In this document: piece after piece, positions 6,061 to 46,524 of the stretch
Layout of the letters: each line of letters starts with the position of its first letter
Position numbering within the stretch: the stretch's first letter is position 1
Virus record (IMG/VR): IMGVR_UViG_3300045988_144418
Location: 37,631 to 101,630 of that record
Strand: one strand, 5' to 3'
From: a virus
DNA: 64,000 bases
Position numbers and translations under genes: made by a program
Notes under the pieces: model-generated
What the model saw: the letters and a program-made list of their open reading frames with translations, nothing else
Databases searched by the model: none
Told to the model about the DNA's origin: nothing

Positions 6061-6720
6061 ATGAATTCCACGATTAGGTACATAATTGTTGGTGACAGTG
6101 AGACTGGAGGGCTTCCTAATAAGGGCAAACAGGCTTTCTATGACATTGCACTGTGTGAATTTGCCTTTGTCGTTATAGATATTCAGGAAATGAAAGTGGT
6201 GGAGGAATGGAGTACACTCTTTAGACCCTATAAGGACAATCTTGAGTATAACCCCCAGGCACTTGAGGTCAATGGTCTTACGGTTGAACAGTTGCAGAAA
6301 AGCGGTGATGACCTGAAGAACATCTATAAGGAAATGATCATGTTGTTTAAGAAGTATAAGAATCCTCGTATAGGAGCGGTACTTGCAGGACATAATTTTC
6401 AGCCGTTTGATATGCCTTTTCTCACTAATATGTTTGAGTTTTGCGGTGATAGCATCTGGAATTATGTCACGTTCGTGGAGGACACCATGAAGCTGGCTTG
6501 GTATCGTGCCAAGGAGCAGGAAAATTACAAGCTCGGAACGTGCTGTCGTATGGAGGGTGTTGATTTGGTTAACGCTCATCGTGCGCTTGCTGACACAAAG
6601 GCGAACGCCCTGTTGCTTTTGAAATACATTTCCTATATGCGTGGCTCTGGAGAGGGTTCGAGCGTTGCGATTCCAAGAATGAAGCCGTCTTCCTTTAGAG
6701 AGACCTTTCAACTTGTGTAG
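6061..6720 (+). CDS. DnaQ-like DEDDh 3'-5' exonuclease
   Basis: ExoI VGDSETGG, ExoII HNFQPFDMPFL, ExoIII HRALADTKANA. Confidence 0.75.
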   Translation: MNSTIRYIIVGDSETGGLPNKGKQAFYDIALCEFAFVVIDIQEMKVVEEWSTLFRPYKDNLEYNPQALEVNGLTVEQLQKSGDDLKNIYKEMIMLFKKYKNPRIGAVLAGHNFQPFDMPFLTNMFEFCGDSIWNYVTFVEDTMKLAWYRAKEQENYKLGTCCRMEGVDLVNAHRALADTKANALLLLKYISYMRGSGEGSSVAIPRMKPSSFRETFQLV

Positions 6721-6722
6721 TG

Positions 6723-8822
6723 ATGATTGAGTTTAATGAGAATAACAGTCTTTCTTTTCGGCAGCTGGATAGTATTATAGACACCACAACGAGAATAGTG
6801 CAGAATCTCCCTGTAAAAGCCATAAATCAGCTTATGGAGGGGTATAGGGGGGATCAGGATGCTATGTTGTCAGAGATGTTTCGTCAGACAGAGAATGTTC
6901 TGAAGTTGAACACTACATTGGAAACTGAACGTCTTTCCTATGTCGATCAGCTTATTGAGAGCATGGATGAGTCCTTGAAGATAATGTCATACAATTACTT
7001 CAAGACTACAATGCTTCCTAATTTTAGACAGGGGTGGAGAAATCTTGAGTGGGGTAATATGATTCAGCTGTACCCGAATAGTGCTTATCTTGCGGCTCGT
7101 TCTCATGGGAAGTGCTTTTTGGCTGGAACTCACATCTTGATGGCTGATTGGACAGTGAAGAATGTGGAGGACATCTATCCTGGGATGGAGGTGATGGGTA
7201 TGGACTTTACCCCAAGAAAGGTTTTCACACGGCATATTGGTCGGTCACAGATGTTTACGGTGCACCAGGAGAATGGCATTTCCTATACCGTGAATAGATT
7301 CCACATTCTCTGCCTATGGGATACAAAGAGGAAACACTATGTTGAGGTTCCGATGGGAAATTTTCTGAAATATCCTCAAGAAAAACAGAATAGGTTTAGA
7401 GGGTACAGAGTGTTTTCGAGCGACAACCCTATACTGGAATATTCTCCTATAGCGGTTGAACCGTATGGTGATGGATCCTACTATGGTTTTGCCTGTGACG
7501 GTGATCATAAGTTTCTTCTGGAGGACAATACTGTTGTTCATAATTCGTATGAATTTTGTATGGGGCTTCCTCTGTGGAGGATGTACTCCTATCGTAGACC
7601 AAATTTTATGAAGCCTGATATTCCGGACAATAGGAATAGAAAGGAAACTTGCATTATAACCAACACGGAGACACTCGGTAAGGAGCATCTGGATAAGATT
7701 AAGGAGGAGATTCATACCAATGAAGCACTTTCAGCGGTGCTTAATCCGAACGGCAAGGCTTCGCTTGGAGCTACTGGCTTTGAGTGTGAGAATGGATCCA
7801 AACTGCATCTTAGAGGGAAGGACGGATTCATTCGAGGTCTTCACGTGGGTGCGGCTGTGTCTGATGACCTCCCTGATGATAGCTCCATCTATAGTCTGGA
7901 GCAGAGAGAGAAGTTGAGAGACCTGTTTAAGGGTGCTATCACCCCTATTGTAGAGCCGTATGGATATAATATCGTGGATGGCACACCGTATCAGGCACAG
8001 GATCTTTATTATGAGTTGAAGCAGGATCCGAAATTTATGGTGTTTGAGTATCCAGCCATATTTCCTGACGGCAGACTTTTGGCACCTGATCGTTTTACGT
8101 TTGACAAGTTGATGGAGGAAAAGAAGTCCGTGGGTACGCTTGTGTTTAGCCGTGAGTATCTTGTTGTTCCTATTTCTGACGATTCCACCATTTTTCCTAT
8201 GGAGATATTAATGCGAAGCACGATAGGAATGGAGAATGTGCGACTTGTAGATAATATTGAATCGTTTCCATTCAAGTTGTCCAGAGTGGTTGTAGGGTGT
8301 GATTTTGCCGTGTCAGGAAATGTGGGTGCTGACTACACTTGTTATACGGTATGGGGGAAGGATTTGAATGGTTCCTATTATCTTCTGTACATCTATCGGG
8401 AAAAAGGTTTGTCACATAATGAGCAGATAAACAAGATAGAGTACTTGAACACGGTGTTTAAGCCGAATGAGATTGTGGTGGAGAATAACGGTTTTCAGTC
8501 CATTCTTGCTGATATGTGTGTACAGAGAGGAATCAAAAATATATATCCGTTTACCACTACTTCAGGAAACAAGAAGGACTTGCGAACAGGGTGGGCGTCG
8601 CTTGCAGCTCTATTTGAGAGAGGTGATATACGATGTCCGTATCATCCTGACACACGACAGAGGATAGACACTATGTTTGGGGAGTTTACATCTATTGCGT
8701 TTCGTTCTGATAAAGGTACACTGGAATCCATTAGCGGTCACGATGACACAGTATCATCCTCGTTTATGGCAATAAATAGATTACGTGAATCAGCTGTTCA
8801 GATAAAGGTTGATGCAGTATAA
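6723..8822 (+). CDS. terL: terminase large subunit, intein-containing
   Basis: The Walker-A loop AARSHGK|S is interrupted by an intein. The C-terminal half looks like an RNaseH-fold nuclease region (VVGCDFAVSG...DYTCYTVWG, GHDDTVSS). ATG at 6723; the track's GTG at 6720 overlaps the upstream stop. Confidence 0.8.
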   Translation: MIEFNENNSLSFRQLDSIIDTTTRIVQNLPVKAINQLMEGYRGDQDAMLSEMFRQTENVLKLNTTLETERLSYVDQLIESMDESLKIMSYNYFKTTMLPNFRQGWRNLEWGNMIQLYPNSAYLAARSHGKCFLAGTHILMADWTVKNVEDIYPGMEVMGMDFTPRKVFTRHIGRSQMFTVHQENGISYTVNRFHILCLWDTKRKHYVEVPMGNFLKYPQEKQNRFRGYRVFSSDNPILEYSPIAVEPYGDGSYYGFACDGDHKFLLEDNTVVHNSYEFCMGLPLWRMYSYRRPNFMKPDIPDNRNRKETCIITNTETLGKEHLDKIKEEIHTNEALSAVLNPNGKASLGATGFECENGSKLHLRGKDGFIRGLHVGAAVSDDLPDDSSIYSLEQREKLRDLFKGAITPIVEPYGYNIVDGTPYQAQDLYYELKQDPKFMVFEYPAIFPDGRLLAPDRFTFDKLMEEKKSVGTLVFSREYLVVPISDDSTIFPMEILMRSTIGMENVRLVDNIESFPFKLSRVVVGCDFAVSGNVGADYTCYTVWGKDLNGSYYLLYIYREKGLSHNEQINKIEYLNTVFKPNEIVVENNGFQSILADMCVQRGIKNIYPFTTTSGNKKDLRTGWASLAALFERGDIRCPYHPDTRQRIDTMFGEFTSIAFRSDKGTLESISGHDDTVSSSFMAINRLRESAVQIKVDAV
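7113..7544 (+). mobile_element. mini-intein (144 aa, no homing-endonuclease domain) in the terminase P-loop
   Basis: Starts with Cys (tgc at 7113-7115; CFLAGTHILMADW). Ends ...YYGFACDGDHKFLLEDNTVVHN (aat at 7542-7544), followed by the +1 Ser (tcg at 7545-7547). These are classic block A and block F/G signatures. Confidence 0.8.
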
Positions 8823-11904: not shown

Positions 11905-12360
11905 ATGATTAAGGTAAGGATTTTTAATGAAAGTAAGTTTCTGGGGTCGGAGTATTTTCCAGAATATAAGAGTTTGGGTGCGTCAGGCGTGGATCTTAGG
12001 GCTGACATCGGTGAGGATATTGTGCTTCATCCAATGCAGCGAATGTTGATTTCAACAGGTCTGCGAATAGCTATTCCTCAGAATTATGAGGCACAGGTTC
12101 GCTCTCGTTCAGGGCTTACAGTGAAGAACGGTGTTATTGTTCTTTCTCCAGGTACCATAGATAGTGATTATAGAGGGGTTATTGGTGTTCCTTTGGCCAA
12201 TCTGGGTGATGAGGATTTTGTAATTCATAGAGGGGATTGTATTGCACAGCTTGTTTTTCAGAAAGTGGAAAGAGTTTGGTTTGAGGGTGTCAGCTCTATT
12301 GAAGCACTTGGTCTAACTGATCGCGGTGAAGGAGGCTTTGGTCATACAGGCGTGAAATAG
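11905..12360 (+). CDS. dut: dUTP diphosphatase (trimeric dUTPase)
   Basis: Canonical motifs GASGVDLRA, SRSGL, GTIDSDYRG, DRGEGGFGHTG. Confidence 0.9.
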   Translation: MIKVRIFNESKFLGSEYFPEYKSLGASGVDLRADIGEDIVLHPMQRMLISTGLRIAIPQNYEAQVRSRSGLTVKNGVIVLSPGTIDSDYRGVIGVPLANLGDEDFVIHRGDCIAQLVFQKVERVWFEGVSSIEALGLTDRGEGGFGHTGVK

Positions 12361-13048: not shown

Positions 13049-13783
13049 ATGGTTACGGATTCAGGAACCATAATTCTTATCAAGGGGGTCAGTGGAAGCG
13101 GTAAATCCACAAGGGTTTATTGCTTCCTTGATTTCCTGGAAAGCATTGGAATGAAACTGAAGCCATATCAGTTTGTGAATATACTTGGACAGACACAGGA
13201 GATAGGCTTGTATTCAGAGGAGTTGAATATGCTTTTTCTGGGAAAGTTCTATGACGACAATGGTGTTCGTAGGTGGCAGGGGTTGGATGCTGTTACAGGG
13301 CGATTGCACACGGCTGAGGGTCTTTCCTATTTCCTGAAGTGGGCTGGTCAGCGGAAGTTGAATGTTGTGCTGGAGGGGGCTGGAACGTCCGTGACGTGGC
13401 GATTGCGTCCGATGGAGATATGTGCCGAGTATGAGTATCTAAATATTCTCTATTTGGTCTATACGTTCAAACTGGAGCAGTATGATGACTATATCAGGAG
13501 AATAGAGTATCGCTCGGGCAAGGCTCCGAAAAGCGACGCTATGTGGCGGAAGCGCAAGGGGTTTGAATCAGACTATACTCAGACTGTTGCGGAAGCGAAG
13601 GACTTGAATGCAGCAGGAGCGGACATTGTCATCAAGTACAATCTTTTCGATGTTGAAGCATGGGATCTCGGTGTAAGCATTATGCAGTATTTCGGTCTTG
13701 ACGAGTTGTGCGATGAGTTCAAGCTGTTTGTGGAGGGTGGTGGTTATATTGGGCAGAATTCCTATGAAAACATTGGTAGATGA
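13049..13783 (+). CDS. P-loop kinase (candidate 5-hmdU DNA kinase-type enzyme)
   Basis: Walker A IKGVSGSGKST near the N-terminus. It overlaps the next gene by 4 nt. The function is inferred from context only. Confidence 0.5.
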   Translation: MVTDSGTIILIKGVSGSGKSTRVYCFLDFLESIGMKLKPYQFVNILGQTQEIGLYSEELNMLFLGKFYDDNGVRRWQGLDAVTGRLHTAEGLSYFLKWAGQRKLNVVLEGAGTSVTWRLRPMEICAEYEYLNILYLVYTFKLEQYDDYIRRIEYRSGKAPKSDAMWRKRKGFESDYTQTVAEAKDLNAAGADIVIKYNLFDVEAWDLGVSIMQYFGLDELCDEFKLFVEGGGYIGQNSYENIGR

Positions 13784-14793
13784 GTAAAATAGTTCCAAAT
13801 GACAATTTGACGTACCTCTTCTATTGGTGCTGTGAACGAATGAACATATTCTGGAAGCGGTATAATGGAGAGCAGTATCCATGGACTGATGATGAGATAT
13901 TACAGCAGTATAAGTTCACAAATGTGTATCGGGTGCTGGATAGGTCAAGTCAGTATATGCTTCGTAACGTTATCTATAATGGTAAGCAGTATTCTCCGGA
14001 GGATATGTTTTTTCGTATTTTACTTTATAAGCATTTTAATCTTCCTGACACGTGGGGTGCCCTGATTAAGGAGTTTGGTGATATTACATACGACACCGGA
14101 TGGGAGAACATTGCACGTTTTCTGGATGATAGAGGTAGACAGGACATCACCATCTATTCTAATGCCTTTATGTTGACAGGGTGGTTTTATTCTCTTCCGG
14201 AGTATGCTAATATTCGTGGGACTTCAAAACATCGTGGATATTTTGAGGTGTTTAAGCGTCGAATTTTTGATAATGGTAAGATTGATGCTTTTCTCAGTGC
14301 TGCAAGTTTTGAAGAGCTTTTTGGTATGTTTAAGGAGCTTGAACCATTTAGCGACTTCATGTCACAGCAGTATTGTCTTGACATGAATTATTCCCCTTTA
14401 TACAACTTTACTGAGAATGACTTTGTGGTTGTCGGCCCTGGAAGTAAAAGGGGGATTCAATTTGCATTTAAGGGGGATCATAGAGATGACGGTGAAGTTG
14501 TTATCAGGTGGATGCAGGAGCACTTTGAGGAACTGATGACAAAGTTCTGTCAGGATTCAGGTATGATTTGGAATCCATTGCCGTGGGAGCCAGTGCCTAC
14601 ACTGACGAACATTCAAAATTGTTTTTGTGAGCTATCAAAGTATGCTAAATGTATGGGTGTGCAGTTTAAGAAGAATACTAAAGGTAGGATGAAAAATCTT
14701 TATACTACACCAAAATCAGAAATTTCTTATATGTTTCCACGGAAATGGAATGTTAAGATGCCGTTAAAAGGGCAGATAGAAACTTATAAATAA
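13780..14793 (+). CDS. DNA base hypermodification-family protein (aGPT-Pplase / 5-hmdU-kinase helical-domain-like)
   Basis: The N-terminal pattern ERMNIFWKRYNGEQYPWTDDEILQQYKFTNVYRVLDRSSQ resembles, from memory, proteins annotated as putative DNA base hypermodification / nucleotide kinase domain proteins. Not verified by search. Confidence 0.4.
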   Translation: MSKIVPNDNLTYLFYWCCERMNIFWKRYNGEQYPWTDDEILQQYKFTNVYRVLDRSSQYMLRNVIYNGKQYSPEDMFFRILLYKHFNLPDTWGALIKEFGDITYDTGWENIARFLDDRGRQDITIYSNAFMLTGWFYSLPEYANIRGTSKHRGYFEVFKRRIFDNGKIDAFLSAASFEELFGMFKELEPFSDFMSQQYCLDMNYSPLYNFTENDFVVVGPGSKRGIQFAFKGDHRDDGEVVIRWMQEHFEELMTKFCQDSGMIWNPLPWEPVPTLTNIQNCFCELSKYAKCMGVQFKKNTKGRMKNLYTTPKSEISYMFPRKWNVKMPLKGQIETYK

Positions 14794-14802
14794 AAAACGA
14801 TT

Positions 14803-15930
14803 ATGGATTTTGTATTTGATAATCTTAGTCAGGCTTTTGTTGGGCTTTTAAGGGATCTTAAGGCTTTTGGTACTTGGACACAGAGGGGAACCAATTCAGC
14901 AGGAAATATGTGCTTGGAATTTCCAGAGCCAGTGCTTATAAAGATATATAATCCACTGAATAGATATGTTTTTGTTCCGGAGCGCAAGTGGAACAAGACG
15001 TTGGGGTGGATTGAATCACTCTGGATTGCCAGAGGTGACAACTCGCTTGAAATGCCGTCAGCCTATGTCAAGAACCTGTTGACGTTCTCCGATGACGGTG
15101 AGACAATGCGTGCAGGATACGGCCCGAGGATTCGTGCCTTTGGTGGTCATCTGTGGAAGAAAGGTGTTCGATTTGAAGAGGGTTCACCGCTATACTGGAT
15201 GAAGCAGCAGTATGATTCCAGATATGGGAATGGTACGGTTGCCGTTGTGGATCAGTTGAAATTTGTGATTGACAAATTTAAGCAGGATCCAACCACGAGG
15301 GAGGCTGTCATTACGATTCATGACCCTATGGCTGATGACTTCAGTGGCAAGGAGATTCTTAGAACGAAGGACACCCCTTGCACACGCTCCATTCACTTTA
15401 TGATCGTAGATGGCAAGATGAACTGTTACGTGGATATGAGATCTAATGATCTGTTCTGGGGCTTCAGTGCTGTCAATGTCTTCAATTTCACTTTGATGCA
15501 GGAGTATGTCGCCGCGATGGTGGGTGTGCCTGTGGGGGTATATTATCACAAAGTTGATAATTTGCACATGTACGAAGGATCTTTGCCTATGGCTAGGAAT
15601 ATTACTTCTATTTATGGAACAATGGCAGCAGTTGAAAAATGGTCTGACTTATATAGTTTTGATGAGGAATTAGATTGGCACGGTTATAAACATACATTTA
15701 CCACATTGGAGGTCTTTGACAATCTAATAGCGTTGCTATCTGAGTTTGAGCGTGGGATGCGTGGTGTCGATGATTTGCCGTACAGCAAGGATGAAGCTCT
15801 GGAAACAATGAACATGATGTTTGGGGGTGAGCCGATGTTTATGGACTGGGCAAAGGTTATCTATCGTAAGTGGTCAAAGGACACGACCGTGACATTTGAC
15901 AATCCGTATCTGACAAAGTTATTTGTCTGA
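14803..15930 (+). CDS. thymidylate synthase-family enzyme (ThyA-like; possible dUMP hydroxymethylase)
   Basis: Catalytic-Cys context KDTPCTRSIHF and MRSNDLFWGFSAVNVFNF (compare TS QRSxDxxLGxPFN). The 375-aa length includes a C-terminal extension beyond typical ThyA. Confidence 0.7.
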   Translation: MDFVFDNLSQAFVGLLRDLKAFGTWTQRGTNSAGNMCLEFPEPVLIKIYNPLNRYVFVPERKWNKTLGWIESLWIARGDNSLEMPSAYVKNLLTFSDDGETMRAGYGPRIRAFGGHLWKKGVRFEEGSPLYWMKQQYDSRYGNGTVAVVDQLKFVIDKFKQDPTTREAVITIHDPMADDFSGKEILRTKDTPCTRSIHFMIVDGKMNCYVDMRSNDLFWGFSAVNVFNFTLMQEYVAAMVGVPVGVYYHKVDNLHMYEGSLPMARNITSIYGTMAAVEKWSDLYSFDEELDWHGYKHTFTTLEVFDNLIALLSEFERGMRGVDDLPYSKDEALETMNMMFGGEPMFMDWAKVIYRKWSKDTTVTFDNPYLTKLFV

Positions 15931-23132: not shown

Positions 23133-24158
23133 ATGAAACAACCTTTAGCGATAATCAGCACCGATTGGCATCTCAAGACTGACAACAAGGAATCTATTTT
23201 GAGCATTGCGAAGCAGGAGATTCAGTCGGCTCAGGATCGTGGTGTGGACACGGTTATATGGCTTGGTGATATGTTTGACAGCAGAACAAGCCAGAGTCAG
23301 GAACTTCTTACCTTTATGGATAGCATTCTGAATATGTACTATCTTGCAGGGTTGACCGTACACTGCATTCCTGGAAACCACGATAAGACAGACTATGGGG
23401 ATGACAGAAGTTTTTTGACAGTGTTCAAGTATCATCCTGACTTTCATCTTCATGAAACGCCTGATATGGTGGATTTTGGTGGCGTGAAGTTCTGGTTTAT
23501 GCCGTTTTATCGGCAGGATGTGTATCTGGATAGATTTCAGATGTGTATGCCGTTGGGTCGATGTGTTCTGTTTAGTCATACGGCTATCTCAGGTTCAATT
23601 AACAATGACGGCAGTAAGGTGGAATCACCTATCAATGCTTCACTGTTTAAGGGGTTTGAAAAGGTCTTTCTTGGGCACTATCATAATAGACAGCAGCCAG
23701 CGAAGAATATCTTTCATCTACCGAGTGTTCAGCAGAACAATTTTGGGGAGGATGAGGATAAGGGTTTTACCGTGCTATATGATGACTTATCCTTTGAACT
23801 TGTAAGGTCGGTTTTTAAGCCTTACAAAGAGATTGTGGTTGATGCACGGACAGTCACCTCGGAGGAACTTGTGGAACTCTCTAAATCGTCCGTTGATGGG
23901 GTGAACTTGCGTCTTACATTCACGGGAGATCAACAGGCGGTGAAGAAGATTGATCGTAAGAAGTTTACAGCCGTCGGCATAAGTGTGCAGGTCAAGTATG
24001 ATGATGTTGATGTGGATGAAGTGGATAGACAGCAGGACATTGTTGCTATGACTGGAACAAATATTGCAGAGAAATTTGAGGAATTCTGTAAGGAAAAAGG
24101 TTATGATTATGTAAGGGGCTATGAATTATTAAAGGAGGTAATGAAATGGCAGGAATAG
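23133..24158 (+). CDS. sbcD: SbcD/Mre11-family nuclease
   Basis: Calcineurin-like phosphoesterase motifs: ISTDWHL, LGDMFD, IPGNHD, LGHYH. Confidence 0.8.
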   Translation: MKQPLAIISTDWHLKTDNKESILSIAKQEIQSAQDRGVDTVIWLGDMFDSRTSQSQELLTFMDSILNMYYLAGLTVHCIPGNHDKTDYGDDRSFLTVFKYHPDFHLHETPDMVDFGGVKFWFMPFYRQDVYLDRFQMCMPLGRCVLFSHTAISGSINNDGSKVESPINASLFKGFEKVFLGHYHNRQQPAKNIFHLPSVQQNNFGEDEDKGFTVLYDDLSFELVRSVFKPYKEIVVDARTVTSEELVELSKSSVDGVNLRLTFTGDQQAVKKIDRKKFTAVGISVQVKYDDVDVDEVDRQQDIVAMTGTNIAEKFEEFCKEKGYDYVRGYELLKEVMKWQE

Positions 24159-25108
24159 AAGAACTTGTATCAACATTGCAGAAGAAGTTCGGCAAGGAGA
24201 TTGTGGCTGGAAACACTTCACAGGAGGTAACTTTCATATCATCAGGCAGTATGGGTCTTGACTTGGCTCTGGGTGGTGGATACCCTCTCGGCAGAATAGT
24301 GGAACTCAGAGGGTATGAATCCAGTGGCAAGACAACGCTTGCTCTGACAGCTTGTGCAAGCATACAGAAACAGACAGGCAAGGCGATTGTCTATGTGGAC
24401 AGAGAGAACGCCATTGATATGGACTATGTTAAGGCACTGGGTGTGGATATTTCACCACAGATGTTCATTCTTACACAGGCCGGAACGGCTGAGGAGTGTC
24501 TGGAGATTATACGTGAATCAGCGAAGTCTGATGCAGTGGGTGGCATCGTTATGGATTCAGTGGCCGCTATGTTTCCACGATGCTATCTGGAAGCGGAGGT
24601 GGGGGATGCCAAGATGGGTGTTCTGGCACGTCTGATGTCAGCGTGGCTTCCAGGGATTGTGGGTGACTTGAAAAGAAACAACATTATCGCTTTATTTATC
24701 AATCAGTATCGTGAAAAGATAGGTGTGATGTATGGTTCGCCTAAGACAACCCCAGGAGGAAAGAGTTTGGGTTTTTACGCAAGTCAGATTCTGGATATTG
24801 CCAAGTCAGGTGTTATTGGTGACAAGGGTGAGGAATCAGCCATTCACGTTAAGGTGCGTGTGGAAAAGAACAAGGTTGCTCCACCGTTGCGTAAGGCGGA
24901 GTTTGATATTCGCTTCGGTGAGGGTGTGGACAGAGCGTCCGAGGTGCTTGACCTTGCCGTTGAATATGGTGTTGTGGACAAGAAAGGATCGTTCTTCCGT
25001 TATAACGGTGACTTAATCGGTCAGGGTTCGGAAAAGGCAAGGACTTTTCTTGCTGACAATCTTGAACTGATGCAGGAGATAGAAGCAAAGGTGACTGAAA
25101 AGATTTAG
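24146..25108 (+). CDS. recA: RecA recombinase
   Basis: SGSMGLDLALGGGYPLGRIVELRGYESSGKTTLAL and a bacterial RecA-like core throughout. Confidence 0.9.
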   Translation: MAGIEELVSTLQKKFGKEIVAGNTSQEVTFISSGSMGLDLALGGGYPLGRIVELRGYESSGKTTLALTACASIQKQTGKAIVYVDRENAIDMDYVKALGVDISPQMFILTQAGTAEECLEIIRESAKSDAVGGIVMDSVAAMFPRCYLEAEVGDAKMGVLARLMSAWLPGIVGDLKRNNIIALFINQYREKIGVMYGSPKTTPGGKSLGFYASQILDIAKSGVIGDKGEESAIHVKVRVEKNKVAPPLRKAEFDIRFGEGVDRASEVLDLAVEYGVVDKKGSFFRYNGDLIGQGSEKARTFLADNLELMQEIEAKVTEKI

Positions 25109-25112
25109 GCTT

Positions 25113-27107
25113 ATGAGGCTGGAAACGTTAAGATTAAAGAATTTTCTCTCTTTTAAGGAATTGAACCATACATTTCGTAATGGGGCAATCCTTATACAGG
25201 GGCGCAACCTTACGGAGGACAGTAAGGAGACAAACGGTGCAGGAAAGTCAACGATGGAAGCAGGAATCTCCTATGCGTTGATGGCCACACCACTTCGTAA
25301 GCAGACACTTGATAGAGATTTGATAAGGTGGGGTGAGGATGAAGCGGAGATTGAACTGACGGTGTTCTGTCCAGTGCGTAGTCAGCGACTACGTATATTT
25401 AGGAGGATACGTGTTAAGGGGTCAGCGACACTGGAACTGTACCTGAATGAACAGTCTGTGCAGTTTGCTTCCGTGCTGGAGGGTAATAGGTATATTCTGG
25501 ACTGGATAGCGATAACACCTGAGGACTTGAAGTCCTTTTACATCCTGAACAAGGAGAACTACAAGTCATTTTTGAGCGCATCCAACACGGACAAGCTCGC
25601 TTTGATCAATCGTTTTATGAAAGCGGAGCGACTGGAGGCGGCTGATGATGTCATAAAGGAGCAAAGTGCTCCTTATGTTGAGAAGCGTGATGCGGCTCAG
25701 AGAAAGGTCTTTTCCATTGAAGGCGAATTAAACGCCTATAAGGGTCAGTTGGTCTATGAGCAGTCCCGTAACCTTGATGAGGAGCTGGAGCAGCAGGTGG
25801 CGACGATTAACGAGCAAATAGAGCAGTATGGGCGGAAGATTCAGGCATGTGATGATGATAGTAGGCGAGTGGAGAAATCCAGGGGTGAAGTTGAAGCCGA
25901 TATCACGCAGAGGAGGGAAAGCCTGGACACGGTGAAGCGGTCACTCGAAGCGATGGTCGCCGACAACAGCCTTGAACGGCAGAAGGAATCCATTAGGCAG
26001 GAGCGTCAAGGGTTGGACAATGCCGCCTTTGAAGCCAGAAACTTTCGCAGTGAGGAACATAGACAACTTGATGAAACGAACAGAAAGTTGGCTGAACTAA
26101 ACAAAATGCTTGCAGGTGTGGTCACGTGTCCACACTGTCATCACAGATTCCTACTTAATGATACGGAACGTTCTGTTGCTGAACTGGAGAATGAGAAAGT
26201 TGCTGTAACATACGATGTGGACGCTCACAGTAGTGCAATAGAGGAGGTTAATGCGGTGCTTGATGAACTTGCGGCTGATCTTTCCACTTATGACTGCAAG
26301 GAAAAGGAGCTTGCTGAAGCGATGAACAGGCGTGATGCTGAGATGTCAACATTGCGTAGGCAGGTGGCTGACGCCGAGCGTGTTATCTATGCCAAGGAGG
26401 CCGTATTGGGTCAGTGCAGTGAAACTGTTAGGCGTAATAACTCCACCATTGAAAGTCTGCGGAAGGACATTCAGCAGGAACAGCAAAGGATTGCTGTGCT
26501 TATGGAGGATGGTATTCAGACCAAGGTCGAGGATTATAAGGGACTGATAACCCTGACAGAGAAGAAGCTGGATCGTGCTCAGAAGGAACTTGAAAAGGCG
26601 GAGGGTGAGCTTGGAGAACTTCAGCAGTGGGGTCAGCGGTTTAAGGACTTCAGAATGTCACTTGCCTGTGGACAGTTAAAGGTTATTCAGGATGTGGCCA
26701 ATCTGTCCCTGGAAAGGCAGAAGTCTGAGCTTCGTGTGTCCATTGACGGCTTTAAGGTGAACGCCAAGGGTCAGATCAAGAGTGAGATTACGGTGCTTGT
26801 TATTAACGGTGAGGGTGAGTATAAGAGTTTCTGGTCGTACAGTGGCGGTGAGCGTGCCAGAGTGGAGATGGCTATGATTCAGGCCTTTCAGGAAATGCTG
26901 AATGCTACCAATCCTTATGGTGGGCTGGATTTTTTGATGATTGATGAAGTGCTGGAGGGGACTGACCCTCTTGGCTTGAACCTACTTATTGAATCGTTGA
27001 AGGATGTTGAAAATCCAGTTTATATCATTAGTCACGTGATGAACATTAAGGCTGGAGTGCCGACCTTGACTATCACGAAGGAAAACGGTATAAGCAGAAT
27101 AGAATGA
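25113..27107 (+). CDS. sbcC: SbcC/Rad50-family ATPase
   Basis: Walker A ETNGAGKST, long coiled coil with zinc hook CPHCHH, ABC signature YSGGERARV, Walker B FLMIDEV. Confidence 0.8.
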   Translation: MRLETLRLKNFLSFKELNHTFRNGAILIQGRNLTEDSKETNGAGKSTMEAGISYALMATPLRKQTLDRDLIRWGEDEAEIELTVFCPVRSQRLRIFRRIRVKGSATLELYLNEQSVQFASVLEGNRYILDWIAITPEDLKSFYILNKENYKSFLSASNTDKLALINRFMKAERLEAADDVIKEQSAPYVEKRDAAQRKVFSIEGELNAYKGQLVYEQSRNLDEELEQQVATINEQIEQYGRKIQACDDDSRRVEKSRGEVEADITQRRESLDTVKRSLEAMVADNSLERQKESIRQERQGLDNAAFEARNFRSEEHRQLDETNRKLAELNKMLAGVVTCPHCHHRFLLNDTERSVAELENEKVAVTYDVDAHSSAIEEVNAVLDELAADLSTYDCKEKELAEAMNRRDAEMSTLRRQVADAERVIYAKEAVLGQCSETVRRNNSTIESLRKDIQQEQQRIAVLMEDGIQTKVEDYKGLITLTEKKLDRAQKELEKAEGELGELQQWGQRFKDFRMSLACGQLKVIQDVANLSLERQKSELRVSIDGFKVNAKGQIKSEITVLVINGEGEYKSFWSYSGGERARVEMAMIQAFQEMLNATNPYGGLDFLMIDEVLEGTDPLGLNLLIESLKDVENPVYIISHVMNIKAGVPTLTITKENGISRIE

Positions 27108-27607
27108 GTGGTGTTAAAACTATAATAGGGGTGGATCCTGGAAAGGAGGGGTATATTACATTGATGATAGGTGCTTGCTTTAGACACTATCCTATTCCTA
27201 TGATAGGAAACAAGGAACTGGATATGGTGGCACTTTCATCATTGATTGTTGAGATAGCGAGCCTATGTGATCCAAGCAAAACACAGGTTGTCATAGAGGA
27301 CGTTCACGCAATATATGGAAGTTCCGCTGGAGCGACCTTTACATTCGGTGGAATAGCGTATGCGTTGCGAATGGGATTCCTTATGGTGGGGCTTCCTGTT
27401 GTGCTTGTGTCACCGAAGAAGTGGCAGAAGGAGATGTTTGAGGGGATAAAACCTGATCCAGACAAGAAAGTGATGTCCATTGCAGCAGCAAAGCGTCTGT
27501 GTCCGACAGCGGACTTGCGACGCACGCCACGATGCACCAAGCCTGATAACAACCTCACGGATTCACTCCTCATAGCGATATACGGATCAAGACACTATGT
27601 ACTATGA
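27104..27607 (+). CDS. RuvC-like Holliday junction resolvase
   Basis: IIGVDPGKEGY, VVIEDVHAIYG, LTDSLLIAIYG give the acidic catalytic residues in RuvC-fold order. Confidence 0.65.
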   Translation: MSGVKTIIGVDPGKEGYITLMIGACFRHYPIPMIGNKELDMVALSSLIVEIASLCDPSKTQVVIEDVHAIYGSSAGATFTFGGIAYALRMGFLMVGLPVVLVSPKKWQKEMFEGIKPDPDKKVMSIAAAKRLCPTADLRRTPRCTKPDNNLTDSLLIAIYGSRHYVL

Positions 27608-38184: not shown

Positions 38185-39801
38185 ATGAACACAAGAATTC
38201 TTTTTGGAAAGGACGCAAGAGCAGCTCTGCTCGCTGGAGCGGAGGAGCTCTATTCAGCGGTGGCGTCCACACTCGGACCGAGAGGTCACACGGTTGCGAT
38301 TGATAAGGGGTACGGCATACCTCATATCACCAAGGATGGTGTGACGGTGGCTCGTGCCTATGACATTGATGATCCGATGAAGCGAATGGGCGCAACACTC
38401 GTTAAGATGGTGGCTGCAAAGACCTGTGATCAAGCAGGTGACGGAACCACCACGGCCACGATATTGTCCTACGCTATGATGAAGCGTGGTGTGTGTGGCT
38501 CGGTGAACATACAGAATCCGCATGAGTATCGCAGAGGTATGGAAGACGCACTGGATGAGGCTGTCAGCTATATTAAGTCCAGTGCTGTAAAGATAGAGCC
38601 TGACGAGATTGACAAAATCAGACAGGTGGCCAAGGTGTCAGCCAACGGTGATGATATGGTGGCTGATCTTATTACATCGGCGATAGAGAGTGTCGGCAAT
38701 GACGGCATCATTACCGTTGAGGAGAGCACCAAGGGAGATGAATCCACGGTGGAGGTTACAACTGGCTTTCAGTGGAGTAAGGGGATTATAAATCCATATT
38801 TTGTTACTGACAGTGAGCGAATGGAGTGTGTTCTGGATAAGCCGTATGTTCTTATCTGGGGTCAAAACATCAATTATGTTCAGGAGATTCTTGCTGTGGT
38901 GCAGACTGTATATACAGCCAAGAGATCCCTTTTGATTGTAGCTCCAAACGCTTCCAATGACGTGATAAAGTTTCTTGTCACAAACGTTCAGCAGAATAAC
39001 GGTCTAAAGGCATGTTTTGTAAAGGCTCCAGGATTCGGTCAGATGCAGAAAGACTTGATGCAGGATTTGGCTGTAAAGGTGGGCGGCAAAATTGTTGGTG
39101 AGGAATACGGTAATGCCATGGAGTCATTTGGAACTGACTGGCTTGGTGAGGTGGACAAGGCCACAATCTCAGCCAATAGAACCGTTCTCGTGGGCGGTGC
39201 TGGAAAGTCTGTGGATATAGATGCTCGAATAGAATTCATCAGGAATGAAATGGCTGAAAACTCCAACACCTATGATAGAGAAAAGTATAGAGAGCGCATC
39301 AGTCGTCTTACAGGCGGTGCGGCTGTCATCTATGTAGGTGCGGACAGTGAAGTGGAGATGAATGAGCGCAAGGATAGAGTGGATGACGCCATTGCGGCCA
39401 CCAGAGCCGCTCTTGATGAGGGTTATGTTCCGGGAGGGGGGACAATTCAGTATAAGATAGCCAAGATTCTGGAAAGGTCACTGGATGACAACCCAAAATG
39501 GAGCACCGATTATTTGGAGGGCTACCGTACTGTGATTGATGCCCTGAAGAAACACTTTCACATTCTATGTGAGAATGCAGGAGTGGAGCCTATTCGGATT
39601 GAGGTTATGATGGACTTGAAGTCCACGGCATTACAGCAGGGCTACAATCCATTTACTAACAGTATAGAGGATATGTATAAGGCTGGCGTGATAGATCCAG
39701 CCAAGGTCACACGAACATCACTGGAGAATGCTGTGTCGGTGGCCGTTCAGTTCCTCGGTATGTCGTGCGCTATGTCAGGTGAGGAGGCTAAGAAAGTATG
39801 A
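38185..39801 (+). CDS. groL: GroEL-family chaperonin (Cpn60)
   Basis: DAGDGTTTATIL-type ATP motif (QAGDGTTTATIL), ITVEEST, AALDEGYVPGGG; length 538 aa. Confidence 0.9.
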   Translation: MNTRILFGKDARAALLAGAEELYSAVASTLGPRGHTVAIDKGYGIPHITKDGVTVARAYDIDDPMKRMGATLVKMVAAKTCDQAGDGTTTATILSYAMMKRGVCGSVNIQNPHEYRRGMEDALDEAVSYIKSSAVKIEPDEIDKIRQVAKVSANGDDMVADLITSAIESVGNDGIITVEESTKGDESTVEVTTGFQWSKGIINPYFVTDSERMECVLDKPYVLIWGQNINYVQEILAVVQTVYTAKRSLLIVAPNASNDVIKFLVTNVQQNNGLKACFVKAPGFGQMQKDLMQDLAVKVGGKIVGEEYGNAMESFGTDWLGEVDKATISANRTVLVGGAGKSVDIDARIEFIRNEMAENSNTYDREKYRERISRLTGGAAVIYVGADSEVEMNERKDRVDDAIAATRAALDEGYVPGGGTIQYKIAKILERSLDDNPKWSTDYLEGYRTVIDALKKHFHILCENAGVEPIRIEVMMDLKSTALQQGYNPFTNSIEDMYKAGVIDPAKVTRTSLENAVSVAVQFLGMSCAMSGEEAKKV

Positions 39802-42507: not shown

Positions 42508-43422
42508 ATGGCAAAACCAGATTGGATAACATTAAGCAAGACGTCAGGTACAGGCAATGATACTGTTACCGTGACGGCTGCGAAGAACACGGGCACCTCT
42601 GCAAGGAGCGGCTCAATCACTGTCAAGTCAGGATCTCTATCAAAGGTGGTGACGATAAGTCAAGAGGCGCAGACCCAGAATTCTCTCGTGTGGCCTACAA
42701 GTGGGCTGGCGTTTCCTCCGATTCAGAATTATAGTTCTAACAATTCTACTCACCTGGATGTGGATCTTAAATACTTTGACGGTTCACTCACCACACTGGA
42801 CGCTACAATCTTTATGGTGAATGGTGAGGAAGAATCCTCCAGCCGAGTTCTATCTGACTTCGGTCTATCCTTGACAGGGTCTATCATAAAGACAAACGGT
42901 GACACCACGACAGTCAGGTTCCAGGTGACAGTCACTGATTCCACCAAGCTGGAGGCCGAGCTGGACACTTCCCATTATGGAGAGGGAACCGAGACGGAGC
43001 CATATTATGGAGACATGAGTTTTTACATCACTGGATTGAAAGGTGAGGACGGTGTGGGTGTTGCAAGCGAAACGTATGCGCTTACAATCTACAAGGTAGT
43101 GCCACAAAGCCCTGTTGGTAAAATTACATTATCGCCTGAAACTGTGGAGATTGATCTTGAGGGTAATGCTTCCGTTACCGTAACTTATTCCAACATCGTT
43201 CCTTCCTCCATCCAAATAGACACAAGTGAAGTCCCTGACAGCATTACAATTGCCCCTCAGAACCTGCCTGTCGGACAGGAAATAAGTAGTGGAACACTTG
43301 ATCTCTTTATTACCGTTAGTTCAGAAGCGACAACGGATTTCAACCACGAATTTAACGTTTCAGGTCGTGATTCTGAAGGTCAGACAATCACGGCAACAGG
43401 TACAATCTATATTAGACCGTAG
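42508..43422 (+). CDS. BACON-domain tail fibre / receptor-binding protein, currently expressed variant
   Basis: The N-terminus PDWITLSKTSGTGNDTVTVTAAKNTGTSARSGSITVKSGSLSKVVTISQ is BACON-like. Codons 35-53 lie inside the left 55-bp inverted repeat. Confidence 0.65.
   Translation: MAKPDWITLSKTSGTGNDTVTVTAAKNTGTSARSGSITVKSGSLSKVVTISQEAQTQNSLVWPTSGLAFPPIQNYSSNNSTHLDVDLKYFDGSLTTLDATIFMVNGEEESSSRVLSDFGLSLTGSIIKTNGDTTTVRFQVTVTDSTKLEAELDTSHYGEGTETEPYYGDMSFYITGLKGEDGVGVASETYALTIYKVVPQSPVGKITLSPETVEIDLEGNASVTVTYSNIVPSSIQIDTSEVPDSITIAPQNLPVGQEISSGTLDLFITVSSEATTDFNHEFNVSGRDSEGQTITATGTIYIRP
42611..42665 (+). repeat. left 55-bp inverted repeat (IR-L)
   Basis: gctcaatcactgtcaagtcaggatctctatcaaaggtggtgacgataagtcaaga is the exact reverse complement of 44477-44531. 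Confidence 0.95.
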
Positions 43423-43448
43423 GTTTTGTGAATTTAATTGCAAATTCA

Positions 43449-43474
43449 AGGGAACGTCCTATTGGGCGTTCCCT
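43449..43474. terminator. shared hairpin between the two convergent fibre cassettes (bidirectional terminator candidate)
   Basis: agggaacg-tcctattgg-cgttccct, flanked by A/T-rich sequence on both sides. Confidence 0.55.
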
Positions 43475-43521
43475 AATTATTTAGAAGATTGTAGGATACA
43501 TATAAATTCTGACAATCTTCT

Positions 43522-44496
43522 TTATGATATATCAAGGAACTCATCATCACAATATAAGGTGATAATTATATCGTCCTTAATAGATACATAACCATTTAAA
43601 TCTAACAAAGATGGATTTTGCATCTCAAGCACGACAGACGAATCAAATCCAGGAACTTCTGTTCCGAAATAAGTCTCTGACAAATCAAAGGTAGGCAAAT
43701 TTAATAAACTTAAATTACCTGTTTTGATCTCTGAAATTGACACAACACCGATTTGGGTAGCTTCTATGGCAGCAAAATCAGTAACAAAGGCTAGATTATT
43801 TAGTTTGAAAACTGAGAACGGCATTGGAATGCACCTATATACATCCATCCTAAGTTCTGGTACTGATCCACCTGCATCTACACCTGTTACGTAAGGAAAT
43901 ATAGGTAAGTAACTTGTATTGTTATCCCTGTTTATTAACCAAACAAGACCGAACTTCTCACTGGTAAATTGTGATGGCATTCTGGAGAGGAAAATCGAAT
44001 CTGATCTAATGACTGCGTGGTATCTGGTTTGATATTCTTCAACAATACAATCAGATTCAAGTATAATTGAAGAATCATGAGAAGTAACGACATTCTCAAC
44101 TTTGGTAAAGAGATCTGCTTGAACTTTTGCAATTTCACATAACAAGAAGTTCTCATTGTTATAAAAGTCTGTATGTGCAGACGTTTCATTATTATAAACA
44201 GTATCAGGATTAGTGGATCCGTTTAATATATGAACATATAAGAACTGATTATATTTCCAGTCAACCTGCAACTTGTTGTATAATTCGGTAACATTAGACT
44301 TTGGAATATCAATGTATATGTATTGTGAATCCATTGATACGATTGTTCCCAAAGATAAACCATCCGTTACAGTCAAGCCATTGGTATTAATATATACTTC
44401 TGTATCATGATTCGTTACATCTAAATTTTGATCAGCATTTGATATTGCAATCTTCATTGCAACAACGGTAGAAGCATCTTGACTTATCGTCACCAC
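43522..44496 (-). CDS. start-less alternative C-terminal cassette for the BACON-domain fibre (silent in this orientation)
   Basis: This is the only convincing minus-strand ORF in the window. Its 5' end is the right inverted repeat (…SITVKSGSLSKVVTISQ|DAST…). There is no ATG in frame before or inside the repeat after the in-frame TAA at 44545-44547; the track's 'M' is a GTG at 44496. Confidence 0.55.
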   Translation of the reverse strand: MVTISQDASTVVAMKIAISNADQNLDVTNHDTEVYINTNGLTVTDGLSLGTIVSMDSQYIYIDIPKSNVTELYNKLQVDWKYNQFLYVHILNGSTNPDTVYNNETSAHTDFYNNENFLLCEIAKVQADLFTKVENVVTSHDSSIILESDCIVEEYQTRYHAVIRSDSIFLSRMPSQFTSEKFGLVWLINRDNNTSYLPIFPYVTGVDAGGSVPELRMDVYRCIPMPFSVFKLNNLAFVTDFAAIEATQIGVVSISEIKTGNLSLLNLPTFDLSETYFGTEVPGFDSSVVLEMQNPSLLDLNGYVSIKDDIIITLYCDDEFLDIS

Positions 44497-44531
44497 CTTT
44501 GATAGAGATCCTGACTTGACAGTGATTGAGC
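44477..44531 (-). repeat. right 55-bp inverted repeat (IR-R)
   Basis: The + strand reads tcttgacttatcgtcaccacctttgatagagatcctgacttgacagtgattgagc, an exact reverse complement of IR-L. Confidence 0.95.
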
Positions 44532-44566
44532 ATTTGACGGAACGTTATTTGTAAACATATATTAAA

Positions 44567-45025
44567 ATGACAGTTATGACAGAGGAAAACATTATCATTA
44601 GACGGTTGAATGAGTTATTAGGCTCACACTTCACCGTGATGACCTACGCTTGGGGCTGTCACTGGAACGTGACAGGAATGGGATTTAAGGCGGCTCATGA
44701 CTTTTTGAAGGATCTTTATGAGGCCGAGCAGGAGCGTGTGGACGCCACGGCTGAAAGAATTCGTGCTCTGGGCGGCATGGCTTCAGCATCCATAGAGGAG
44801 ATGGAGCGTAGAACGCTTATATCCGCCGACGGTGATACCGTGAACAGTCATGACATGGCTTCCGTGTGGAGCAGCCTTGCTCGTCTATGGGGCAGTCTCA
44901 TCAACATTATAGCTGATGTTCATGGGGTCACGGCTGAGGCTGACATCGCGACACGGTCATTTCTGGAGAATATGACAGAGGAGATGCAGAAGGAACTATG
45001 GATGATCACGGCAAATCTTAAATAG
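44567..45025 (+). CDS. Dps/ferritin-like protein
   Basis: CHWNVTGMGFKAAHDFLKDLYEAEQERVDATAERIRALGG matches the Dps ferroxidase-helix pattern (HWNV.G..F..lH..f.e.y......D..AERi..LG). Confidence 0.75.
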   Translation: MTVMTEENIIIRRLNELLGSHFTVMTYAWGCHWNVTGMGFKAAHDFLKDLYEAEQERVDATAERIRALGGMASASIEEMERRTLISADGDTVNSHDMASVWSSLARLWGSLINIIADVHGVTAEADIATRSFLENMTEEMQKELWMITANLK

Positions 45026-45924: not shown

Positions 45925-46524
45925 ATGGCATACGTTATGAAGAGAACAAGGAGGGAAGCGGACTTCTTTCTTGTGCAGAGGGCAATCTGCGGTGATCAGT
46001 CCGCCTACACCAAGATATATGAGGACTATCAGAAGTCCGTTCGATATGTTGTGACCAAAATTTTATATAGAAGACCGATGGAAGTGGAGGATGTGTGCAT
46101 GGAGACGTTCGAGAGGGCGTTCTCCCTACTGCACAGATTTCAGCCTGACTATCAGCTATCGGCTTGGCTTGTGAGGATAGCGTCCAACAGAGCGCTGGAC
46201 TGTCTACGGAGGGGCAATAGACTGGACGTCACGGCTGATGATGACAGCCCTGTTCTGGAGTTGCAACTGATGGATGACGCACCTCTTCCCATGGAGCAGG
46301 TGGAACGTACACAGGACATCTCCTATCTGAACAGTCTTATGGAGGAGCTTCCAGACAATGAGCGTGACGCACTTCGCATGAGATGTCTGGACGGCCTTTC
46401 AAGCGACGAGTGCGCAGAGCAGATGGGAACCACCAGACGCACGGTGCGTCACTCCGTGCGTGACGGCATACACCACCTGAAGAGTATGGTGGACAAGACT
46501 GATGTTGAACTTAGAAGCAAATAG
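45925..46524 (+). CDS. ECF-type sigma-70 family RNA polymerase sigma factor
   Basis: Region 2: VEDVCMETFERAFSLLHRFQPDYQLSAWLVRIASNRALDCLRR. Region 4: LPDNERDALRMRCLDGLSSDECAEQMGTTRRTVRHSVRDG. Confidence 0.8.
   Translation: MAYVMKRTRREADFFLVQRAICGDQSAYTKIYEDYQKSVRYVVTKILYRRPMEVEDVCMETFERAFSLLHRFQPDYQLSAWLVRIASNRALDCLRRGNRLDVTADDDSPVLELQLMDDAPLPMEQVERTQDISYLNSLMEELPDNERDALRMRCLDGLSSDECAEQMGTTRRTVRHSVRDGIHHLKSMVDKTDVELRSK

Follow-up and report, generated by a model that had tools for sequence, protein, structure and literature searches.

A stretch of viral DNA of 64,000 nt (IMG/VR record IMGVR_UViG_3300045988_144418, positions 37,631 to 101,630; hereafter the window) carries a gene at 42508..43422 that encodes a protein with an N-terminal BACON domain. 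On balance, the locus of this gene appears to be an invertible cassette switch without an invertase of its own, with homologous recombination as the likely driver and a probable adhesin as the target. Its anatomy, the presence of both orientations in nature, the concerted evolution of the two repeat arms and the selection acting on silent cassettes are shown by the sequences, and no recombinase gene was found.

The inverted repeat bounding the segment consists of arms of 58 nt (42611-42668 and 44474-44531) which are 98% complementary and include a perfect part of 55 nt (42611-42665 and 44477-44531), at the same positions as in the preliminary description of this DNA. Apart from it, a single inverted repeat of 25 nt or longer was reported for the whole window, with no more than 71% complementarity; a 55-mer match arising by chance within 64 kb is effectively impossible. 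The + strand gene encodes 304 amino acids (aa), with the BACON domain (PF13004) detected over residues 3-53 (E = 2.8e-14, 53.3 bits against a gathering cut-off of 25). The left arm spans its codons 35-53, and here the earlier placement agrees with the list of open reading frames (ORFs). On the minus strand, the ORF 43522..44496 runs in frame through the right arm (*RSVKC-SITVKSGSLSKVVTISQ-DASTVV...). The stop codon of this frame is located at 44547-44545 and the first possible start thereafter is a GTG within the repeat. The cassette had been described as start-less with an in-frame TAA just upstream; the description held when the reading frame was checked, and the GTG inside the repeat is an addition to it. 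The repeat ends 35 bp from the Dps start codon. The features of the locus and the recombination genes of the window are collected in Table 1.

Table 1. Features of the invertible locus and recombination genes of the window
Feature	Position	Strand	Description
Constant gene part before repeat	42508..42610	+	start codon, codons 1-34, first BACON strands; ORF list, PF13004
Left repeat arm	42611..42668	+	encodes last BACON strands, ...GSITVKSGSLSKVVTISQ(E)
Cassette c1, expressed variable C-terminus	42666..43422	+	~252 aa, native-like G+C of 0.46, two beta-sandwich/Ig-like domains in model
Hairpin between converging cassettes	43449..43474	both strands fold	G+C-rich; terminator-like on +
Second hairpin	43476..43528	-	directly after and overlapping c2 stop codon; inverted repeat I3; fold z -6.6
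Cassette c2, silent alternative C-terminus	43522..44476	-	318 codons, G+C 0.335, start-less, no visible promoter
Right repeat arm	44474..44531	-	55 nt perfect with left arm
In-frame stop	44545..44547	-	TAA on minus strand, just upstream of silent copy's repeat
SbcD	23133..24158	+	flanks recA; recombination/repair cluster
RecA/UvsX-like recombinase	24146..25108	+	Pfam RecA 7e-77; phrog_97 UvsX-like 1.5e-65
SbcC	25113..27107	+	flanks recA; recombination/repair cluster
RuvC-like Holliday-junction resolvase	27104..27607	+	phrog_1770, 1.8e-16

The hairpin on which both cassettes converge, noted earlier as shared, was confirmed and has a stem of 11 bp; for the + strand and the - strand, the fold z-scores at the inter-cassette hairpins were -4.4 and -6.6, respectively. 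The G+C content of the minus cassette (0.335) is lower than that of the plus cassette (0.459), as spot counts had indicated, with a value of 0.451 for the window. No canonical Bacteroidota -7 motif (TAnnTTTG) was seen directly upstream of 42508.

The last ~18 BACON codons are duplicated in inverted orientation 1.8 kb downstream, the second copy heading a start-less cassette on the opposite strand. According to the proposed mechanism, reciprocal exchange between the 55-bp arms would flip the 1.9-kb segment 42611-44531 and place the other cassette in frame behind the unchanged promoter, start codon and BACON domain, giving a protein of 370 aa in place of 304 aa, and the formerly expressed cassette would turn silent. 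Such a flip would swap the outer two-thirds of the BACON-domain protein, with the inter-cassette hairpins predicted to terminate transcription in both states.

To compare the locus among related genomes, the window segment 42611-44531 was flipped in silico and aligned with its relatives (labelled L001, L003 and so on). Genome L124 aligned with the flipped window as a single high-scoring segment pair (HSP) of 6,037 bp with 93.3% identity, whereas its alignment with the native window consisted of three HSPs, the middle one inverted and ending at 42607 and 44531. The same pattern was obtained for L122. The L011 sequence gave two collinear HSPs against the flipped window, split at an inter-cassette gap, and L119 was collinear with the native window. 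The alignments strongly support a precise inversion with breakpoints at the repeats. The predicted fusion of the constant 52-codon N-terminus to the alternative cassette was borne out in close relatives, where the flipped state is an intact gene for 371 aa.

The repeat is present in ten ~100-kb genomes of the lineage, the window included, its perfect part being 42-68 nt long. These genomes were drawn from IMG/VR and European Nucleotide Archive assemblies made with differing assemblers. The comparison with relatives that had been proposed earlier, for the same repeat with different cassettes, yielded several cassette pairs. With the expressed cassette named before the silent one, c1/c2 was found in the window and L119, c2/c1 in L011, L122 and L124 (the layout of L125 is identical), c1/c3a in L001 and L121, c3b/divergent c1 in L003, c2/truncated c3b in L018 and c1/truncated c3b in L120. 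Thus c2 is encoded as part of a 371-aa fusion in L011, L018, L122 and L124, c1 occupies the silent position in L011, L122 and L124, and c3a and c3b are also found in the silent or the expressed slot. In the protein database, one N-terminus was found joined at ...VVTISQEG... to c1, c1-like, c2, c3a-like, c3b-like and short c4 modules; judged from these sequences, four or more types of cassette are exchanged behind a single constant N-terminus. Eight genomes were 2-7% apart at the nucleotide level in the 3.3 kb flanking the locus upstream, and in a neighbour-joining tree of this flank their states are interspersed. Inversion and cassette replacement have thus both occurred repeatedly within a narrow clade.

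A metagenome scan with the N-terminus confirmed at least 10 loci. Pattern scans with the repeat core revealed no further IMG/VR genomes and none among GTDB genomes, and a megablast search of the window locus against GenBank phages gave no match. Short contigs with cassette fragments (L126-L128) were considered as isolated invertible segments and rejected as low-coverage fragments. Sister lineages differ at the same position, L109 having one gene without a cassette and L004 three complete tandem genes, which suggests that the switch arose from tandem paralogues. In the syntenic region of L004 (5304-7406) the tandem genes encode 225, 229 and 228 aa, each with its own BACON N-terminus and a different C-terminus, with no inverted repeat; this may be an arrangement from which the switch arose, or an alternative to it. 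A C5 DNA methyltransferase gene is located between the right arm and Dps in L003 (4326-5501), L121 (5481-6659) and L119 (5544-6722; there broken into three ORFs, likely a pseudogene), and the window lacks it. As this insertion is present in some relatives, the outer flank of the repeat is itself a variable spot.

The two arms evolve in concert. In the 40-nt core common to the ten genomes, polymorphism between genomes is confined to 8 columns; there, the left and the right arm of the same genome match in 79 of 80 cells, the sole disagreement lying at the inner edge of the window's repeat. Exactly two arms were present in every genome examined. The inner boundary of identity varies by genome from ...ISQ to ...ISQEGQTQ, the outer flank of the right arm has three forms, and the repeat of L003 shows seven synonymous-type changes, all present in both arms. 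Since the boundary shifts and the changes in L003 were copied into both arms, it is the arm-to-arm identity that is conserved rather than a fixed site. Concerted evolution of this kind requires heteroduplex-type gene conversion between the arms, which homologous recombination provides. A central block, CAAAGGTGGT, was invariant in all ten genomes.

In the silent cassettes the reading frame is intact over 257-327 codons, also at a G+C content of 33%. Comparisons of silent with silent copies gave ratios of nonsynonymous to synonymous substitution rates (dN/dS) of 0.37 for c2 (window and L119; the range listed for this cassette is 0.37-0.60), 0.37 for c3a (L001 and L121) and 0.36 for c1 (L011 and L122), and of 0.14 for c1 of L011 and L003, for which dS was saturated (>2). 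By this measure the silent cassettes are maintained under purifying selection. They are probably expressed at times, because cassettes that were never expressed would lack open frames and low dN/dS.

A search for the enzyme responsible gave negative results throughout. With Hin as the phmmer query, no serine invertase was revealed among all window ORFs of 90 codons or more (best E 0.83), and Pfam searches of the + strand ORFs of at least 120 aa in the window found no serine or tyrosine recombinase. No recombinase was present among precomputed Pfam hits in the 10 kb upstream and 10 kb downstream in the source genome, or in a Pfam scan covering, in a close relative, the region that begins upstream of the portal gene and stops just short of the tape-measure gene. 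The earlier statement that no serine or tyrosine recombinase could be recognised was made for the window and stands after extension to the ~101-kb genome. The dyad TTATC-N12-GATAG, likened before to Hin/Gin half-sites, is present in the window repeat, whereas L003 has TGATT...GAAAG and L018 has TTATT. A Hin-like site was rejected: the dyad is lost in L003, altered in L018 and wrongly spaced, relatives keep the system without conserving it, and no serine invertase was found to match.

Homologous recombination is favoured as the flipping mechanism because the arm identity is conserved, no recombinase was found, and RecA/UvsX-like, RuvC-like and SbcCD proteins are encoded in the window. A dedicated invertase is less likely. 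The exchange would be performed on short coding repeats by the phage RecA/UvsX-like protein as candidate catalyst and the RuvC-like protein as candidate resolving enzyme, or by host equivalents. Repeats of 42-68 bp are near the minimum length for efficient RecA-type recombination. The catalyst and the rate of switching are, like the location and the ligand of the protein, what we infer from the locus.

The encoded protein was examined by structure prediction and fold searches. The model of the c1 fusion has three tandem beta-sandwich domains with a mean predicted local distance difference test (pLDDT) score of 85, and fold searches with it returned generic immunoglobulin-like (Ig-like) arrays (template modelling scores of 0.2-0.3) and other phage BACON proteins. 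Since the fold matches are to generic Ig-like arrays alone, no specific function can be claimed for this form. Neither the model nor the fold searches supported a trimeric fibre, and no tail-fibre PHROG or Pfam match was obtained for either fusion form. Searches with c2 and the other cassette types against PHROGs, Pfam and PDB sequences found nothing beyond the BACON domain. The gene has a protease-like gene and Dps as its neighbours, in accessory, early-looking surroundings with GroEL, Dps and sigma-factor genes, and ~40 kb separate it from the genes for baseplate and tail. The name of tail-fibre gene given to it in the preliminary description was therefore dropped: it has no tail-fibre family match, lies far from the tail genes and is modelled as three Ig-like domains. 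Most likely, the product is a virion-displayed or otherwise surface-binding adhesin of Ig-like domains with a constant anchor and a variable tip, the distal domains of which would determine the binding target on Bacteroidales cells or glycans.

A better tail-fibre candidate is the 845-aa ORF at 699-3236 of the window. It is the first large gene after Baseplate_J and contains an InlB B-repeat-like domain, and its C-terminus is BACON-like by eye (WVSVSPKSGGAGATEIRINVS). In the structural module of L106 (815-4850), proteins of 210 and 849 aa with BACON-like N-termini are encoded just upstream of genes presumed from position and size to be those of sheath and tube. The 849-aa protein has a sub-threshold BACON match and its C-terminal region resembles, by eye, the part preceding c2 in a 921-aa protein of other phages.

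This 921-aa multi-BACON protein is found in other Bacteroidales phages and a prophage, and its C-terminal ~317 aa are a c2 homologue with 85-86% aa identity. The G+C content of the c2 homologues is always 0.33-0.35. In L015, the 921-aa protein is encoded just upstream, one short ORF away, of a 1138-aa protein matching tail-fibre/host-specificity families. At the end of an uncultured Bacteroidales prophage (L133, metagenome-assembled genome CAKVCK010000001, 201437-212378), BACON proteins of 550 and 921 aa are followed, in this order, by a holin, DUF6808, a tyrosine integrase and hisS. The c2 module there (G+C 0.33) sits within DNA of 0.45-0.58 G+C and is therefore foreign in this prophage too. 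The earlier suggestion of horizontal acquisition of the low-GC module gained support from these copies. Because of its context and G+C content elsewhere, c2 seems to have been acquired horizontally and to have an adsorption-related role in the phages with the 921-aa protein; the analysis supports such a role. That the switch may change the host range is suggested by one line of evidence, the genomic context of c2 in other phages.

Several points weigh against an invertase-less switch of an adhesin. The gene is outside the structural module, and single-BACON phage ORFs are generally located away from tail genes, as found by de Jonge et al. 2019 (PMC6949934). The AlphaFold model of the c2 fusion was unusable (pLDDT 32, 8 close sequences). 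In an exact look-up, the flipped proteins of the exact window strain were absent from a collection of 15 billion proteins. MEGAHIT contigs assembled with k exceeding the repeat length traverse the locus in one orientation in L018, L022, L119 and L121, from which it follows that one orientation was dominant in these samples. The two states are known between genomes, and the sequence data would fit both recurrent inversion over evolutionary time and frequent switching. For part of the genome, the search for recombinases used solely the close relative or precomputed Pfam hits, with a 722-aa tape-measure-like ORF of the relative outside the scan, and a recombinase may be divergent or of unknown type, smaller than 120 aa or host-encoded; Bacteroidales encode many.

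These last points bear on the main rival view, namely that the same switch is flipped in trans, by a host invertase (Mpi-type serine or Tsr-type tyrosine) or by an unrecognised phage enzyme acting at a core site, which is possible and, in our estimate, rather unlikely. The architecture is that of classical invertase switches such as Mu G and P1 C. Trans-acting invertases are numerous in Bacteroidales and their families are enriched near programmed inversions (PMC9881135). The small ORFs skipped in the scan and the invariance of the central block would suit such an enzyme, but the repeat is coding and the conserved peptide SKVV accounts for the block. The scans of the ~101-kb genome brought up no recombinase domain, and the seven changed positions in L003, with loss of the Hin-like dyad, argue against a fixed site. 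Moreover, concerted evolution over 42-68 nt with moving boundaries needs heteroduplex repair, which site-specific recombinases do not provide. A lower probability is given to the absence of a working switch, with the silent cassette a storage copy and raw material for rare accidental inversions between strains, without bet-hedging. We consider this improbable, although the evidence for two states between genomes only and the single dominant orientation of the long contigs agree with it. So do the horizontal movement of cassettes (c2 in other phages, c3b truncated in L018 and L120, states that ignore the flank tree) and the sister lineages which cope with one gene or with three tandem complete genes. 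Against it, arms stay identical within a genome while diverging between genomes, and purifying selection on silent cassettes over a long divergence (dS > 2, omega 0.14) is hard to explain without regular expression. Two contigs stop exactly at the repeat edge, L118 (SPAdes-style name, 105 kb, ~967x) at the inner and L122 (a 57-kb scaffold) at the outer edge; this fits mixed support for two junctions, and a failure of repeat resolution would look alike.

It is very improbable indeed that the minus-strand ORF is an ordinary independent gene, a decaying duplicate or an assembly artefact. The GTG within the repeat could serve as a start codon, but nucleotide identity reaches 35 nt upstream of it, with the in-frame stop 13 nt further, and the 35 bp between the repeat and Dps leave no space for a promoter. 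An independent gene was rejected, since identity runs upstream of the sole start codon, up to the stop. An artefact was likewise rejected, as the architecture recurs in more than 10 independent assemblies from many samples and different assemblers, and decay is contradicted by intact ORFs under selection. Diversity-generating retroelements, which are frequent in gut Bacteroidetes phages, combine a reverse transcriptase with template/variable direct repeats that differ specifically at adenines. A target of such an element was dismissed because the repeats are inverted and identical and the Pfam scans contained no reverse-transcriptase domain.

Returning to the switch driven by homologous recombination, a more specific version can be put forward tentatively, as a true bet-hedging device which dispenses with an invertase and combines the phage's own RecA/UvsX-RuvC pair, a coding repeat of ~55 bp at a domain boundary and horizontally acquired adhesin modules. 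If this is true, the length of the repeat would be tuned near the minimum for homologous recombination and would thereby set the switching rate, and the phage would have its own equivalent of the phase-variable capsules and surface proteins found in its Bacteroidales hosts.

The phage genome from which the window comes has a length of ~101.5 kb, was assembled with differing circular permutations in two samples and belongs to a lineage of uncultured ~100-kb genomes present in many human gut assemblies, as judged by sample names. Besides the recombination genes (RecA, SbcCD, RuvC-like resolvase), the window encodes the large terminase subunit (TerL), DnaB, a primase, a PolIII-alpha-like polymerase, an NAD ligase, several helicases, GroEL (Cpn60, 38185-39801), a Dps/ferritin-like protein (44567-45025), a sigma-70-family factor and 5-hydroxymethyldeoxyuridine (5-hmdU) DNA kinases. 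Dps-like genes have already been noted in phages of gut Bacteroidetes (PMC8008677). The window is preceded by a tape-measure-like gene, a tube initiator and Baseplate_J, and is followed by a short minus-strand block with a Rep3 initiator, after which come portal and capsid genes. The Rep3-family initiator (WH1 + WH2) was located just past the 3' end of the window (L022 11371-14972, L025 1610-5087). No integrase was found anywhere in the genome, and a Rep3 initiator without an integrase hints at plasmid-like maintenance; the phage looks virulent or plasmid-like. TerL is 34% identical to that of the B. thetaiotaomicron phages DAC19 and SJC03. The host assigned earlier, a member of Bacteroidota, remains plausible given these TerL relatives, promoter-like motifs seen by eye and the cassette relative in a Bacteroidales prophage.

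An intergenic motif of ~45-60 nt (TTGGATATTCAAGAA ... TAxxTTTG) occurs 11 times in the window (12365, 21286, 30295, 31322, 45537, 49117, 50746, 56768, 57578, 59147 and 63885), and none of the copies immediately precedes the switch gene. The motif resembles a Bacteroidota-type promoter that has a conserved element upstream, and the phage's own sigma factor (45925..46524) perhaps recognises it. The 5-hmdU kinase genes (HMUD2, 13049..13783; HMUDK_hel, 13780..14793, E = 1.2e-72) are adjoined by a thymidylate-synthase-like gene and a dUTPase (13049-15930, also 11905-12360), and the phage DNA probably carries hypermodified thymidine. In TerL (6720-8822, 700 aa), the precomputed annotation gives a Hint/homing-endonuclease-type match (PF05203) before the nuclease domain, which suggests an intein or Hint insertion.

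The locus resembles the Mu G/Gin, P1 C/Cin, e14 P/Pin and p15B Min systems in having inverted repeats in a coding gene, with a constant N-terminus outside the segment and alternative C-termini on opposite strands inside it. In those systems inversion swaps the distal specificity part of a phage surface protein and both orientations occur in nature; among the genomes related to the window, too, both orientations were found, each with a complete gene. Mu G-type systems, in contrast, have an adjacent serine invertase of the Gin/Hin family, which was found neither there nor elsewhere in the genome of the window phage, and a conserved 26-bp gix/hix crossover site, in place of which there is a weak dyad with the wrong spacing. 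Their cassettes carry a fibre-assembly gene (U/U') and their target is an S-type fibre, whereas here each cassette is a single ORF fragment and the target is a BACON and Ig-like protein outside the tail module. Their hosts are enterobacterial rather than Bacteroidales, and they differ further from a phage without an integrase whose arms evolve in concert with shifting boundaries. Tests for an invertase, a gix-type site, a fibre-assembly partner gene and an S-type fibre were all negative, and the locus is outside the Gin/Cin family. R64-type shufflons (Rci) consist of several segments with many short sfx repeats and an adjacent Rci; a shufflon was rejected here, as every genome examined has two arms only and no tyrosine recombinase was found.

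Similar, too, are systems which depend on general recombination. In Neisseria pilE/pilS and Borrelia vlsE, start-less silent cassettes are selected and moved into one expression site via short shared sequences in a RecA-dependent manner, and pneumococcal hsdS loci undergo recombinase-independent inversions across longer repeats. The pilE/pilS and vlsE-type systems are bacterial and work mostly by non-reciprocal conversion from many cassettes, whereas the locus described here belongs to a phage and would undergo reciprocal inversion of two cassettes. Bacteroidales evade phages via promoter flipping at capsule and surface-protein genes; to our knowledge, phage-side switches in the gut are hardly described. 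In a 2026 paper, 16 putative invertons were presented as the first in gut viral genomes (PMC13501310). In full-text literature searches, no description came up of an inversion switch that acts on a BACON protein of a phage.

Gene-altering programmed inversions have been catalogued in bacterial genomes (Milman et al. 2023, NAR 51:553, PMC9881135), and the locus matches the signature given there, namely inverted repeats in a full-length gene and a shorter start-less paralogous fragment in opposite orientation, with a C-terminal swap. The target families include phage tail genes and Bacteroidetes surface genes (SusC), and BACON proteins are not named among them in the sections consulted. The catalogued loci are bacterial, with recombinase genes enriched adjacent to them, whereas the present one is in a non-integrated phage genome without a recombinase gene. 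For gut Bacteroidetes phages, de Jonge et al. 2019 (PMC6949934) report proteins with an N-terminal BACON domain, little conservation at the C-terminus, horizontal transfer of domains and a suggested function in binding. Arrays of tandem BACON domains are described close to tail genes and ORFs with one BACON domain at other places, and the sections consulted describe no invertible cassettes. The anatomy and the logic of the inversion are thus already known from Mu G, P1 C, e14 and p15B and from bacterial gene-altering programmed inversions. New here are a Bacteroidales phage as the carrier, a BACON/Ig-like target outside the tail module, the finding of no invertase gene and evidence for the homogenisation of arms by recombination. 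The locus represents a clear, comparatively validated phage-side example, in which a constant BACON anchor is combined with at least four interchangeable distal modules in both orientations, the modules being candidate determinants of phage binding targets. If switching runs on general recombination, searches for a neighbouring recombinase would miss such loci, and a repeat at a domain boundary could convert tandem paralogues into a switch.

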